This document shows positions 4,144 through 13,037 of a stretch of DNA of 14,006 nt, one piece after another. The DNA is from Escherichia coli (GTDB lineage Bacteria > Pseudomonadota > Gammaproteobacteria > Enterobacterales > Enterobacteriaceae), in NCBI RefSeq assembly GCF_003334255.1, contig NZ_QOWU01000080.1. The stretch is one strand, 5' to 3'. A model generated the notes under the pieces. That model had not been told where the DNA came from and did no database searches. It saw nothing but the letters and a program-made list of their open reading frames with translations. Numbering within the stretch: the first letter of the stretch is position 1; each line of letters starts with the position of its first letter. The translations under genes and the position numbers were made by a program.

Positions 4144-4181
4144 GGGGTTCCGTGGGAATTTCTGCGATAACACCCGCTAAG
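4144..4181 (+). repeat. Tn3-family 38-bp terminal inverted repeat (left)
   Basis: GGGGTTCCGTGGGAATTTCTGCGATAACACCCGCTAAG. Confidence 0.65.
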
Positions 4182-4318
4182 CGATTCCTCCCTGACGGAA
4201 ATCACTTGTTTTCCGTCAGGTCCTGCAGTTGAAGAAAATTGAATCCATAAATCTGTGATTTTTTGCGTGACAAACCCTGTCGGAATGAGAAACTGTACGG
4301 AAACTTCAATTTTAAGGT

Positions 4319-4504
4319 TTGTCGTACATTCGCAGCCAGGGGATCATTATACCGGAAGAGCTCTTGTCCAGTGTATCACCACTACCATGGGGTCATATCT
4401 CACTCACTGGAGATTACCTGTGGAACGAAATTGACCATCCCCTTGAACGATACAGGCCACTTCGTACTAATCGCTTCAATCCAAAGAACTTCACTTTTCC
4501 TTAG
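4319..4504 (+). pseudogene. tnpA: Tn3-family transposase TnpA C-terminal remnant
   Basis: Translation ends PLPWGHISLTGDYLWNEIDHPLERYRPLRTNRF, resembling the extreme C-terminus of Tn3-family TnpA (LGWEHINLTGDYLW...RPLRP as recalled); stop codon lies inside the right IR, as in Tn3-family transposons. Confidence 0.5.
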
Positions 4505-4537
4505 CGTGTGTTATCGCAGAAATGCCCACGGAACGCC
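4500..4537 (-). repeat. Tn3-family 38-bp terminal inverted repeat (right)
   Basis: Reverse complement reads GGCGTTCCGTGGGCATTTCTGCGATAACACACGCTAAG. Confidence 0.65.
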
Positions 4538-8436: not shown

Positions 8437-8688
8437 AGCTTTTTCCTCAAAAAAATCTCCGGTATAAAACCAGAGGCTTGTTATAGGGGTCAGTTTGGAG
8501 ATCGGAAAATTTTGTTCGTTAAGCACATTATTTAACCAATAGATATGCGTAACGGATTGATTTTGCGTCAACGGCTATCGCTTTTAAGTTATCGCCATTG
8601 CGGTATTGCATTTAGGTTATCCGATAGAGGTCAAATCCTCTGAAAATGCCGTATAGCACGGGAGTACACCCTACCGCAATAGCGCAAC

Positions 8689-9141: not shown

Positions 9142-9524
9142 AATTCGTTAGTTCACAGGAAGTGATTGAGTTTCATGACCGCTTGATTTCGCGTGATGGT
9201 GGCGTGGCGGGTATGCCAGAACCCGGTCGCGCTGACGCGATCATTCATCGTGTTTTGAACATGTATCATTATGAAGGTGTGACAGATATTATGGATCTGG
9301 CTGCCGTGTATTTAGTTGCTATTGCTCGTGGTCACATTTTCAACGATGCAAATAAGCGAACAGCCTTGTTTGTTGCACAGGTTTTTTTAAAACGGAATGG
9401 TGTACATATTATTAGTTCACGTATTTCGTTTGATGAAATGCAAATTATCGCTTTGAATGCTGCAACAGGAGAATATAACTGGAAGATGGTTTCTGACCAT
9501 CTTAAAGCCATTATTCTAAATTAG
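9138..9524 (+). CDS. doc: Doc toxin (Fic/Doc family)
   Basis: 128 aa with the Doc-type motif HIFNDANKRTA and GMPEPGRADAII, resembling P1 Doc; translationally coupled to phd. Confidence 0.9.
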   Translation: MKFVSSQEVIEFHDRLISRDGGVAGMPEPGRADAIIHRVLNMYHYEGVTDIMDLAAVYLVAIARGHIFNDANKRTALFVAQVFLKRNGVHIISSRISFDEMQIIALNAATGEYNWKMVSDHLKAIILN

Positions 9525-9631
9525 ATATAGATATCCAATCAGCAGCATTTTACAATCTCCTGAGCAATGTAAAAATCATATATCTTTTTACTATATAATT
9601 TCTGGCGTATGTGCTCAATTCAGACCTGACA

Positions 9632-9693
9632 CCCTTCCGCTTCCTCGCCCACTCGCCCACTCGCTCACTACCGTTCGGTCGCTGCGGCGAGCG
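9632..9693. other. ColE1/pMB1-like plasmid backbone segment (region flanking ori; possibly a primosome assembly site)
   Basis: CCCTTCCGCTTCCTCGC...CACTCGCTCACT...CGTTCGGTCGCTGCGGCGAGCG resembles the pBR322/pUC segment TCTTCCGCTTCCTCGCTCACTGACTCGCTGCGCTCGGTCGTTCGGCTGCGGCGAGCG, recalled from memory. Confidence 0.4.
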
Positions 9694-9776
9694 TTTGTAA
9701 GTTTTTCAATACAGACGACGTTCTCCCTGGCTGATTAATATTGTGTAATAATACATATCGTTTTCAGGAATAATGG

Positions 9777-10034
9777 GGGGTTGAGGCCCAATCGTACGAG
9801 ATCGTACGCTAAGTTCATTTTTTGAGCAGAAGAGGGGGGGGGTAAAGAAAACGAGGGTTTTGTTTACTCTTCCCGTCAATGCCAGTAGCCATGCGGTTTC
9901 AGGGACTTTCAGTGTTAATAAACTCGGTAATCAAATCAACGTAAACCTGCCTAACAACGCCACGACTTTATTGACTTAAAATCATATAGTTAGCTTCTTA
10001 GCGTACGTTTCCGCTCCATTGGGCTTCAAACCCC
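9777..10034. mobile_element. 258-bp element bounded by gamma-delta (Tn1000)-like IRs; IS101-like miniature element, or a composite of IR remnants
   Basis: Left IR 9777-9813 GGGGTTGAGGCCCAATCGTACGAGATCGTACGCTAAG and right IR 9997-10034 (reverse complement GGGGTTTGAAGCCCAATGGAGCGGAAACGTACGCTAAG) are inverted with outer GGGG and inner TAAG; no ORF inside. Confidence 0.5.
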
Positions 10035-10120
10035 TATACCAGGCAAGACGCATTCGCCTTGCCCGTAAATATCTGAACGGTAAAAAGGTTATGGAAGAAA
10101 CCGGGGAAAATACGCCCCCG

Positions 10121-10399
10121 TCAGCGTAAGGATTTCTTTTGCAGCTCCAGAGACTCCAGTTTTTTACGCAAATCCTCTCTTTTTTTGGCATCTCTGGTGC
10201 CTGCCAGTTTAGCTCTCAACTCATCGATCTGAAGCTGTATCTCCAGCCTTTTACTGAACATTTTCTGTCTGGCATTAACATCAGCAACAATGCCGTTTTT
10301 TGTCTTCTCGGCCTTTTGTTGAAAAACATTGCTGTCCGCATGACTGGCGACCGAAGCAGAAAGCACACTAAAAAGCAGGACTGGCACACATTTTTTCAC
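10121..10399 (-). CDS. Small secreted protein (92 aa) with a signal peptide and a charged coiled-coil-like mature region
   Basis: GTG start with AGGAA 8 nt upstream; MKKCVPVLLFSVLSASVASHA signal-like N-terminus followed by a K/E/R/L-rich sequence. Confidence 0.5.
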   Translation of the reverse strand: MKKCVPVLLFSVLSASVASHADSNVFQQKAEKTKNGIVADVNARQKMFSKRLEIQLQIDELRAKLAGTRDAKKREDLRKKLESLELQKKSLR

Positions 10400-10501
10400 G
10401 GGATTATTCCTGACTCATTGACCATCAAATCACATTGGGGTAAACCGACGTATGATAAGAGATACTCTTCGGAGATATAACCCCCTGAGTATCAGGATGA
10501 A

Positions 10502-10539
10502 AAACGCAAGGAGATGTTTATGGGGTCCGCTTGGAAAAC
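10502..10539 (+). repeat. Tn3-family 38-bp terminal IR (Tn21/Tn501-like), left end of the tnpR-tnpA transposon
   Basis: GGGGTCCGCTTGGAAAACGGAAAATATCCCACGCTAAG; compare the Tn21 IR as recalled (GAAAACGGAAAATA...CACGCTAAG). Lies just beyond the tnpR stop. Confidence 0.6.
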
Positions 10540-10567
10540 GGAAAATATCCCACGCTAAGACTATTTT

Positions 10568-11158
10568 CTATACAGTAACAGTTTGCTGTTTCGCTCTAAC
10601 TCTCAGAATTGTTTGCCGTGTGGTTCGGAATTCCCTGGCAATAGCACTTATACTTGCCCCAGACTTAATGCGTTCGAGTACCTTCTGTTTTTGTTCTTCA
10701 TTTAATACCGGTGGGCGACCAAAACGTTTTCCTGCATCCCGTGCTCTTGCTATCCCTGAATAAGTTCGTTCAAGTAAAAGATCTCGTTCAAATTCAGCGA
10801 CCGCTGAAATCACTTGCATTGTCATTTTTCCTGCCGGACTGGTCAGATCAACACCACCTAATGCCAGGCAATGCACCCTGATGCCAGATTCGGTCAGTTG
10901 CTCCACTGTTTTCCTGATATCCATTGCATTACGACCGAGGCGATCCAGTTTTGTGACTATCAATACATCGCCACTTTCCAGACGATCAAGCAACCGGTTA
11001 AAACTAGGACGTTCACTGGCTGCTACTGAGCCACTAATTTGTTCTTCGATTATTCGTTGGGGTCTGACGTTAAAACCCGCGCTTTCGATTTCCCGACGTT
11101 GATTTTCGGTCGTCTGTTCCAGAGTGGAAACCCGACAATAGGCAAAAATTCGAGACAT
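10568..11158 (-). CDS. tnpR: Serine recombinase, Tn3-family resolvase TnpR
   Basis: 196 aa; N-terminal catalytic motif [22 protein letters not shown]-helix region, C-terminal HTH; divergent from tnpA. Confidence 0.9.
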
Positions 11159-11318
11159 AGTGAGATCTTCTGTACGAAATAGGTGTACATATTATAATGC
11201 ATGTCCGAAAGTAATTTCGCTGACTTTCGGATATATCTGTTTAACAATGTCCGAAACCGGTCGTTTTCGGTCACAACAAATCCATAACATATGAAAACTT
11301 TACACGAGGGAAGCATTC
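11159..11318. promoter_or_regulatory. res site region with divergent tnpR/tnpA promoters
   Basis: Repeated imperfect inverted half-sites (TGTCCGAAAGTA...GACTTTCGGATA; TGTCCGAAACC...TTTTCGGTCACA) and a palindromic ATTATAAT giving a -10-like hexamer on both strands. Confidence 0.5.
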
Positions 11319-13037
11319 ATGCCACGGCGACAAATACTGAGTAGTGAAGAGCAAGCTCGCCTGCTGGTTATACCAGATGATGAAATTATTCTGACCAGAA
11401 TGTGTTTTCTTTGTGATAAAGATATTGCTCTCATTAATAAGCACCGGCGTCCAGCTAATCGCCTGGGCTTTGCGGTATTACTCTGTTACCTGCGTGGGCC
11501 TGGATTTGTTCCGGACAAAAATAATGTTCCCCACTGTGGCGTTGTATCCAGAATTGCTTCAAGACTGAAGCTTCAGCCCGATTTATGGCATGAATATGCA
11601 GCCAGAGAGCAAACCCGCTGGGAGCATCTGGCTGAACTTTATCGCTACCTGAAATTATCTCCGTTCAGCCGAACTCTGCAAAAAGACTGCATTCGGCATC
11701 TGCATTCCTATGCCATGCGAACAGATAAAGGATTTACTCTGGCGGAGGAAATGCTCAGTTGGCTACATAACAATAATGTTATTTTCCCGTCGGTTGATGT
11801 GATCGAACGGACGCTTGCCGAAGCCGTCACACTTGCTGACAGATCTGTTTTTTCGGCACTTACGACACAACTGGGAAAGCAGCATAGATCTGCACTCGAC
11901 AGCCTGCTCATATCAGAAGGGGAACAACCTTCCCGACTTGCGTGGCTACTTCAGCCTCCCGGTAAAATTAACGGTAAAAACGTGCTGCAACATATCGATC
12001 GACTTAATTCTATCACCGCGCTGGAATTACCTGATGGTATTGAGCTTTCCGTTCACCAGAACAAATTACTCAAACTGGCGCGTGAGGGCCGAAAAATGAG
12101 CAGCAGAGATCTGGCAAAATTCACCGATATCAGACGTTACGCTACGCTGGTTTGTGTCATTCAGGAAGCCAGAGCAACATTGACTGATGAAGTTATCGAG
12201 CTACACGAACGCATTATGGGCGGTCTGTTCAGCCAGGCAAAACGCACACAAGCCGAGAGGCTTCAGTTAACAGGCAAACTTATCCAGAGCAAGTTAAGAC
12301 AATATGTTACTGTCGGTCAGGCGCTACTGCATGCCAGAAAGTCAGGTGAAGATCCCTGGGCCGCGATAGAAGATGTTATTCCCAGGCAGGAGTTCGTCAA
12401 CAGCCTGGAAGAAACACAGTTGCTGTCCCGTAAAGGTAATTTCGATCCTCTTCACCTGATCACCGAAAAATACAGCACACTTCGAAAATACGCTCCACGA
12501 ATGTTGTCAGCATTGCAGTTTGTAGCGACACCTGCGGCGCAGCCGCTCAGCGATGCACTGGATACTATAAGGGAAATATACCGTAAGCAGCTTCGTAACG
12601 TTCCGCCTACAGCGCCAACAGCATTTATTCCTGAAAGCTGGCGAAAACTGGTATTAACGCCTTCAGGCATCAATCGAAAATACTATGAGTTTTGTGTACT
12701 GAATGAACTCAAGGGGGCGTTACGTTCCGGAGATATTTGGGTAAAAGGGTCGCGTCGTTACAGAAATTTTGATGATTATCTTATCCCGGTCACTGAATTT
12801 GATAAATCCCGACAAAATGACCAGTTACAACTGGCTGTGCAGACTGATTGCCATGCATATCTTCAGGCCCGTATGACGCTTCTTGCATCTCGTCTGGAAG
12901 AAGTTAACGCAATGGCTCTTGCCGGTGAGCTGCCGGATGTTGATATTTCAGATAAAGGAGTGAAAATCACTCCGCTGGAGAACGGGGTTCTGAGGTGTAC
13001 TGGCAATAGCGGACACTACCATTTGTTCTTTTTTTAA
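11319..13037 (+). pseudogene. tnpA: Tn3-family transposase TnpA, N-terminal ~557 aa only; interrupted by IS insertion at about 12990
   Basis: N-terminus MPRRQILSSEEQARLL...RPANRLGFAVLLCYLR closely resembles Tn3-family TnpA; full-length TnpA is about 1000 aa. The last ~15 codons (LRCTGNSGHYHLFFF) are read from the IS end. Confidence 0.85.

Follow-up and report, generated by a model that had tools for sequence, protein, structure and literature searches.

The window analysed here, 14,006 nt of an Escherichia coli contig (NZ_QOWU01000080.1), contains a short non-coding stretch that is bounded by inverted repeats (IRs) and flanked by sequences of two different plasmid replicons. This raises the question of whether the stretch is a discrete mobile element, to which group of transposons it is related, and how it came to lie between chimeric flanks. 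We conclude that 9776–10034 is very probably a non-autonomous TIME (a Tn3-derived inverted-repeat miniature element) of the Tn1000/gamma-delta IR group, which has no recognisable res site and forms the seam of a plasmid fusion. A first-pass annotation of the window had proposed at this place a Tn3-type miniature element that has no coding content and whose IRs resemble those of gamma-delta, and the copy survey, the target site duplications (TSDs) and the matches to the Tn1000 IRs described below support that proposal.

Boundaries, copies and target duplications of the element

The element spans 259 bp, in which 38-bp IRs, matched at 30 of 38 positions, surround 183 bp. A repeat search of 9500–10300 recovered a sole inverted pair, with arms at 9773–9813 and 9997–10037 that lie 183 nt apart, and a scan of the whole window returned this pair again. 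In the register set by the family consensus, the left IR (9776–9813) reads GGGGGTTGAGGCCCAATCGTACGAGATCGTACGCTAAG and the right IR (9997–10034), as its reverse complement, reads GGGGTTTGAAGCCCAATGGAGCGGAAACGTACGCTAAG. Both start with GGGG and end with ACGCTAAG, which is the pattern of Tn3-family IRs (about 38 bp, GGGG...ACGYTAAG). An IR pair with at least 30 of 38 matches has a binomial tail of 4.6e-12 per placement and of about 3e-5 across all placements within 500 bp in the 14-kb window; a chance origin of the pairing is negligible. The first-pass annotation had described IRs of 37 and 38 bp around 183 bp without an ORF. The spacing of 183 nt and the lack of an ORF stand, but both IRs measure 38 bp and the element starts at 9776; the empty site of related plasmids, in which ...AATAATG is followed by CGG, shows that the earlier start at 9777 was off by one base towards the interior.

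According to the ORF list, no internal ORF of at least 50 aa is present in the element, and two mechanical ORFs overlap its ends only. Rfam searches of 9500–10600 at E ≤1 returned no RNA family, and consensus scans found neither promoter-like nor terminator-like sites inside the element. Its length of 259 bp and the lack of a transposase gene agree with the size of TIMEs (below about 500 bp). The window copy is 3 bp longer than the consensus because a run of nine G replaces GGTGAG (Table 1); the copy on pECOED has a run of seven G at this place.

Table 1. Features of the element and its surroundings in the window, followed by 5-bp TSDs of copies at other loci
Feature	Position or locus	Strand	Details
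Left flank: IncK2/Z-type backbone downstream of phd/doc	9500..9775	.	Insertion point after ...AATAATG
Complete miniature element copy	9776..10034	+	259 bp vs consensus 256 bp; 97.3% identical to consensus
Left 38-bp terminal IR, 'tnpR-end' type	9776..9813	+	Relative to consensus: T5G, C17T
Probable resolvase-gene end remnant (…LLKK*)	9814..9829	-	Alignment with L008, whose annotated tnpR ends …LFKK* at the IR
9-G run in place of consensus GGTGAG	9834..9842	.	Alignment of copies
Palindrome GTAAAGAAAAC-GAGG-GTTTTGTTTAC	9842..9867	.	Conserved; 11+4+11
Second conserved interior block AATAAACTCGGTAATCAAATCAACGTAAAC	9917..9946	.	Conservation alignment
IHF-consensus-like site AATCATATAGTTA	9980..9992	+	WATCARNNNNTTR with 1 mismatch; nt 43-55 from right terminus
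Right 38-bp terminal IR, 'tnpA-end' type	9997..10034	-	IR comparisons
Right flank: ColK/ColE1-type small-plasmid fragment, 488-bp	10035..10521	.	98.6% identical to pSCU-171-3 (L011) 2501-2989
Terminal IR of neighbouring, unrelated Tn3-family transposon	10522..10559	+	19-22/38 vs element IRs; ends ColK fragment
TSD GTGTC	L007		Splits relE/parE gene
TSD TAAAC	L018/L021		Pantoea
TSD TTGAA	L038		
TSD TAATA	L084		Splits chromosomal yifB
TSD ACAGA	L085		4.5-kb pesticin plasmid
TSD TATGC	L086		IncFII plasmid
TSD AACAA	L080		Right flank short

When 9500–10300 was compared with PLSDB by megablast, the query fell into three independent parts that each match a different set of plasmids, namely the left flank (query coordinates 1–276), the element (277–538) and the right flank (536–801). 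About 210 PLSDB records hold at least 80% of the element. The copy-number survey found it in 153 of 5,426 complete E. coli genomes (2.8%), with 181 of 182 places on plasmids and a median of one and a maximum of eight copies per genome; the source-type plasmid has one copy. A pattern scan with the interior added five species-representative genomes and 57 metagenome contigs. The 72 full copies represent 28 distinct sequences, with a consensus of 256 bp. Copies 76–88% identical occur in Enterobacter (E. asburiae, 87%), Citrobacter (one isolate, 84%), Pantoea (P. stewartii, 83–84%), Buttiauxella (82%, on a 1.35-Mb contig) and Erwinia (E. billingiae, 76–78%, with a decayed right end). The unit of IR, interior and IR, about 256 bp long, stands in 39 distinct flank contexts, that is, it recurs in unrelated surroundings, as TIMEs do. 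None of the records examined annotates the element. Full-text literature searching, with ISfinder itself outside the search, returned no description of it; the family is apparently unnamed, which is a provisional statement.

Two contigs, labelled 'Citrobacter sp. 18056' (L022) and 'Chryseobacterium sp. 18061' (L025), carry an identical element copy with the same right flank, and their left flanks differ at one of 15 bases. This sharing is probably due to carry-over between co-cultured isolates and not to true presence in a Bacteroidota genome.

Perfect 5-bp TSDs abut both termini in six of the 39 flank contexts scored. A seventh (L080), with a right flank too short for scoring, stands outside this count. 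With permuted right flanks, 0.44 perfect matches are expected, and none of 20,000 permutations reached six. The flanking direct repeats that the first-pass annotation had suggested looking for at other places are thus present at seven independent insertions elsewhere, though not at the window copy. The element transposes in the fashion of the Tn3 family. In E. coli strain cM8a, three copies (L084, L085 and L086) are each flanked by a perfect 5-bp duplication, which suggests recent transposition activity in this strain; near the copy on its plasmid p3, the search for a helper transposase found only a Tn3-family pseudogene fragment.

On the Enterobacter asburiae plasmid NZ_CP129516.1 (L017, 1615–1864), an end of Tn5403 abuts element position 6, which indicates that Tn5403 inserted within the terminal GGGGG of the element; an intact tandem partner of this copy lies about 640 bp away. 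The tandem pair is intact in other samples (L030, L052 and L063), and a deletion product between both copies was also found (L081).

Relatives of the ends and conservation of the interior

The resemblance of the right IR to the Tn1000 IR, which the first-pass annotation had noted, was borne out by alignment with the genuine Tn1000 on plasmid F (L083). Compared with the gamma IR, the right IR is identical at 33 of 38 positions and the left IR at 31 of 38. The right IR is closer still to the tnpA-proximal end of a Tn1000-like transposon (L009), with 34 of 38 positions and about seven further bases, and the left IR matches the right IR of IS101 at 32 of 38. For the consensus left IR, the tnpR-proximal end of L008, a transposon relic common in Klebsiella plasmids, gave 35 of 38 positions and about 15 subterminal bases. 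Inside this end, 9814–9829 is the probable remnant of the last codons and the stop codon of a resolvase gene, and its TTTTTTGARCAGA stretch is also present in MITESen1. With an end of tnpR type on the left and one of tnpA type on the right, the element appears to have arisen long ago by internal deletion from a transposon with the order IR-tnpR-res-tnpA-IR. A tblastn comparison of TnpA and TnpR with all element variants detected no remnant coding similarity (E ≥0.77), the interior of about 150 bp gave no nucleotide match outside the element family, and an autonomous parent with the same interior was not found. When the parent was sought with the tnpR end of L008, all 240 full-length matches were the same IS26-truncated relic; this query included the IS26 end and was swamped.

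Next to the right IR lies a site that resembles the IHF consensus. Sites with equal position and orientation occur in the corresponding end of IS101 and in Tn1000 delta (both exact) and in Tn1000 gamma and L009 (one mismatch each). Among 10 divergent representatives of the family, the specified bases are invariant and the four N positions are variable. A match of this quality is unremarkable by itself (P = 0.39 in shuffles), and it is the conserved position that argues for IHF binding at 9980–9992, which we propose as a candidate interaction. The ends of gamma-delta bind IHF next to the transposase site, as Wiater and Grindley reportedly found in 1988.

The interior was compared with res sites. 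Against Tn1000 res, the element interior reaches scores of 62 and 47 with a shuffle mean of about 65, whereas the interior of IS101, as a control, scores 145 and thereby exceeds the maximum of 116 in 500 shuffles (0/500). The resolvase motif TGTC is absent from both strands of the element, and TGTCYNNTA motifs are present in the IS101 interior. Comparisons with the res of the window's own transposon, of the source-type plasmid's other transposon, of L009 and of Tn5403 all remained at shuffle level. By these comparisons, a gamma-delta/Tn3-type res is not detectable in the element.

Some interior blocks are nevertheless conserved as strongly as the IRs: across ten divergent lineages, the mean pairwise identity is 0.87–0.95 for the conserved interior blocks and 0.87–0.91 for the IRs. 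Consensus positions 61–92, which hold the palindrome, show a mean pairwise identity of 0.87, similar to the IRs. As a DNA hairpin, the palindrome has z-scores of -4.7 in the consensus and -3.7 in the window copy, and among the fetched loci its motif is confined to copies of the element. No compensatory substitutions in the palindrome were found among the copies, so that its variants give no evidence for an RNA structure. The conservation of the second block is partly inflated because this block served as a search pattern; it is also present in the copies found by BLAST only (L017–L019). As a single strand, the whole element forms a long stem-loop of the kind usual in MITEs (-91 kcal/mol, z = -5.3), with an energy that falls inside the range quoted in PMC4133298.

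Given such conservation, the interior may hold a cis site that escaped recognition, perhaps one for recombination. One explanation of this kind is that a functional res, used by a different resolvase, lies in the element; the palindrome and 9917–9946 would be its subsites, and site-specific recombination between copies, instead of unresolved replicative transposition, would account for the shuffled flanks and the plasmid fusions. The conservation of the blocks is compatible with this explanation, as are the res-subsite-like 11+4+11 geometry of the palindrome, the exchange of flanks described below, the deletion product between near direct copies (L081 compared with L052 and L063) and the precedent of the res-bearing TIMEs IS101 and TIME244. 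However, the interior shows no likeness to any of the five kinds of res compared, with a significant result for the IS101 control, it has no TGTC core, and the centre of the palindrome is not AT-rich. In addition, several samples retain direct copies at spacings of 5.6 kb and about 0.9 kb, and this counts against such a res since an active resolvase would delete the interval. We therefore regard a hidden res as improbable and retain the reading of the element as a res-less TIME. A more far-reaching reading, which we consider rather doubtful, is that the copies make up a hitherto unnamed TIME family of the Tn1000 group that lacks res, welds plasmids together and has a new cis-acting site in its conserved interior. 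If this were true, the palindrome and the second block could, for instance, bind a host factor, enhance transposition or serve as the res of an unknown recombinase, and the main effect of the family would be the welding of small ColE1-type plasmids into IncF, IncI or IncK replicons.

Comparison with Tn1000 and with named miniature elements

Tn1000 (gamma-delta, on the F plasmid) represents the presumed type of helper. Besides its IRs, it shares with the element the distance of the IHF-like site and the 5-bp TSD. In contrast, Tn1000 is autonomous and has tnpA, tnpR and res in about 6 kb, of which the element keeps only the ends and a few resolvase codons. The resolvase-gene end of the element moreover resembles the L008 type, a relative different from Tn1000.

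Reference sequences of TIMEs were taken from Table S2 of Gomi & Yano 2026 (PMC13367494). According to that paper, the enterobacterial MITEs in ISfinder are MITEKpn1, MITESen1 and MITEEc1, and TIME244 was added as MITEEc2. IS101 is described as the 209-bp TIME of pSC101 in the passages of PMC4133298 and PMC13367494 that cite Fischhoff 1980 and Ishizaki & Ohtsubo 1985.

The first-pass annotation had called the element IS101-like, and part of this likeness is real. IS101 is also a non-coding miniature element with gamma-delta-type 38-bp IRs, which are identical to those of the element at 27–32 of 38 positions; it has one end of tnpA type with an IHF-consensus site at nt 43–55 and another of tnpR type, so that the left and right end types of both elements correspond in reverse orientation; and it forms cointegrates, a further likeness to the element. 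Nevertheless, the element is not IS101. BLAST of IS101 against the window aligned only IS101 1–54 and 172–209, at 80–84% identity, which corresponds to the IRs and about 16 nt at one end. The interiors are unrelated, with an alignment at shuffle level, and the lengths are 209 bp and 256 bp. Furthermore, a significant match to Tn1000 res and TGTCYNNTA motifs are features of the IS101 interior that the element lacks.

MITESen1, a 256-bp TIME, has the same consensus size as the element, is likewise plasmid-borne in Enterobacteriaceae and often without flanking duplications, has no recognisable res, and shares the short TTTTTTGARCAGA relic of a resolvase end. However, its IRs belong to another group (18–21 of 38 positions identical) and its interior is unrelated. 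The element interior matches that of MITESen1 only marginally (reached in 1–5 of 300 shuffles), and this match is, as judged by eye, the shared relic. BLAST of MITESen1 against the window returned 8486–8682 only, a separate MITESen1-like remnant, and not the element. That the element is a copy or a diverged variant of IS101 or MITESen1 is thus highly improbable and already refuted by these alignments. TIME244 and IMU, of the Tn21 subgroup, are also TIMEs on enterobacterial plasmids but have Tn21-like IRs, identical to those of the element at 17–22 of 38 positions, and TIME244 has a Tn21-type res.

The proportion of complete E. coli genomes with the element (2.8%) can be set beside the 0.4–2.3% of complete Enterobacteriaceae genomes reported for IS101, TIME244 and MITESen1, with the reservation that the denominators differ; the element appears to be comparably common or commoner than the named TIMEs in complete genomes. 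It is a common, res-less addition to the short list of enterobacterial TIMEs, and the understanding of how such elements work is unchanged by it. Miniature Tn3-derived elements of this kind are invisible to standard annotation.

The element as a probable seam between replicons

About 80% of the contexts show no target duplication, and copies have visibly swapped flanks: one right flank was found joined to three different left flanks, and certain left flanks stand next to two or three different right ones. On OAVT01000079.1, three direct copies lie at about 27,970, 33,861 and 58,534. AAGAC stands after copy 1 and before copy 2, and TTATA after copy 2 and before copy 3; TATCT follows copy 3 and is also found in front of an element copy on a different contig. 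Between copies 1 and 2 lie 5.6 kb that carry RNAI (RF00106) and a relaxase-like ORF, the latter judged by its sequence alone; this stretch is therefore a complete ColE1-type plasmid, opened at AAGAC. A CopA (IncFII) replicon lies upstream and a repBA pseudoknot replicon downstream. The ColE1 interval has the form expected of a cointegrate structure, and homologous recombination between copies would equally give the same structure.

The window copy fits this pattern. The element-free plasmids L012 and L013 read on from ...AATAATG into CGGTCAATTAC, and this continuation of the backbone is missing from the source-type plasmid. On the other side, the colicin K plasmid pSCU-171-3 runs on without a break at either border of the ColK fragment. 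The same junction recurs in related metagenome contigs, where 954–1061 bp of the small plasmid follow and the neighbouring transposon is missing, and on pECOED, where it is cut after 9 bp by IS26. The bases next to the window copy are TAATG and TATAC; there is no target duplication because the position is a fusion junction. Since the source-type plasmid has one element copy and has lost the backbone continuation, the reciprocal junction must have been deleted. Taken together, the window copy appears to be the seam at which a site of an IncK plasmid was joined to a ColK-type small plasmid. A left flank ending in TATAC was considered as the missing reciprocal junction (L061); it has no similarity to the ColK plasmid, and its last bases are a coincidence.

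The unit and its family, the target duplications, the relationships of the IRs, the lack of similarity to res and the chimeric flanks are observed directly. We infer which transposase moves the element, what role IHF has and in which order the events took place, and propose the following scenario, in which (i) the element retains the two 38-bp transposase-binding IRs, the left one with a few resolvase codons and the right one with the IHF-like site; (ii) a Tn1000-like TnpA acting in trans would move it by replicative transposition and generate the 5-bp target duplications; (iii) cointegrates and fusions by homologous recombination would be resolved only slowly, as there is no recognisable res, and copies of the element would often become permanent seams between replicons; (iv) in the lineage of the window, the IncK2/Z site downstream of phd/doc would have been joined via the element to a ColK-type small plasmid; and (v) most of the small plasmid and a second copy of the element would have been deleted later, partly by the neighbouring Tn3-family transposon and IS elements. 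The lost reciprocal junction would then read ...ColK...TATAC, the element and TAATGCGGTCAATTAC... in this order. The element must be moved in trans, as it encodes nothing, and the similarity of its IRs to Tn1000 together with the precedent of IS101 (PMC4133298) points to a Tn3-family transposase. The source-type plasmid encodes no Tn1000-like TnpA; its two Tn3-family TnpAs, that of the neighbouring transposon and another intact one, are 25% and 23% identical to Tn1000 TnpA, respectively. A helper of the Tn1000/ISEc63 group elsewhere in the cell would be needed; only given such help might the window copy still move. Simple TSD-flanked insertions exist, which means that cointegrates have some route of resolution.

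Because three Tn3-type ends lie within 800 bp and TIME-bounded composite structures are documented (PMC13367494), one might suppose that the element, the 488-bp ColK fragment and the adjacent tnpR-tnpA transposon moved as a single composite (TIME-COMP-like) transposon. This is very unlikely: the neighbouring transposon has IRs of another type (Table 1) and a distant TnpA, it must have arrived later because related contigs hold the element with a longer ColK segment and lack it, no duplication brackets any combination of the ends, and among more than 370 records the block of three parts was not found at an unrelated site with a 5-bp duplication. Weaker still is the view, named in the first-pass annotation as what would overturn its reading, that the two IRs are solo ends of unrelated Tn3-family insertions facing each other: flanks from two replicons and the lack of a TSD would agree with it, but it is practically excluded and already refuted by the copy survey, in which the whole unit recurs in the 39 unrelated contexts and several genera, seven times with perfect 5-bp duplications. 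The flanks of the window copy come from different replicons because the element is a fusion junction and not because its ends are unrelated. The TIME at this seam accounts for the presence of ColK-plasmid sequence on the downstream side of phd/doc in an IncK plasmid. The family stands at fusion and rearrangement junctions of clinically relevant Enterobacterales plasmids, and its recognition explains puzzling breakpoints.

The neighbouring transposon has the IR GGGGTCCGCTTGGAAAACGGAAAATATCCCACGCTAAG and a divergent pair of genes, tnpR (10568–11158) and tnpA (11319–13037). IS600 interrupts its tnpA at about 12990, and IS30 is found at the window's end. The bases just outside this transposon do not match (TTTAT on the window side and, read in the same direction, AGTAA beyond the far end), which indicates a rearrangement junction there too. 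Compared with NZ_CP060058.1, the window has 504 extra bases at 11051–11554 in an otherwise identical plasmid; they span the 5' part of tnpR, res and the start of tnpA.

The first-pass annotation had counted two independent miniature Tn3-type elements in the window, the other one at 4144–4537. The clustering of Tn3 relics is real, but 4144–4537 is a different kind of object. This 394-bp unit joins a left 186-bp tnpR end and a right 213-bp tnpA end, its halves are 99–100% identical to full-length transposons, and the joined unit is present in six PLSDB records only. It arose by internal deletion from a complete Tn3-family transposon, is private to one lineage and does not belong to a dispersed family. 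The third relic, 8486–8682, is a truncated MITESen1-like sequence in reverse orientation, 87% identical to MITESen1 61–256 and with one end missing. The clustered Tn3-type relics reflect a rearrangement-rich region of the plasmid.

An IR related to the 8486–8682 relic is present at 28653 of the source-type plasmid. On the E. coli plasmid NZ_CP035883.1 (L005, 1480–1500), the element lies 6 bp from a MITESen1-like end (…CCAAACTGACCCC AAATAA GGGG…), so that two different TIMEs are nested at one hotspot. Elsewhere in the window, 5661–5748 matches the AgrB antisense RNA (Rfam RF02891, 68.8 bits) and adjoins the annotated dqlB, a DinQ-like type I toxin.
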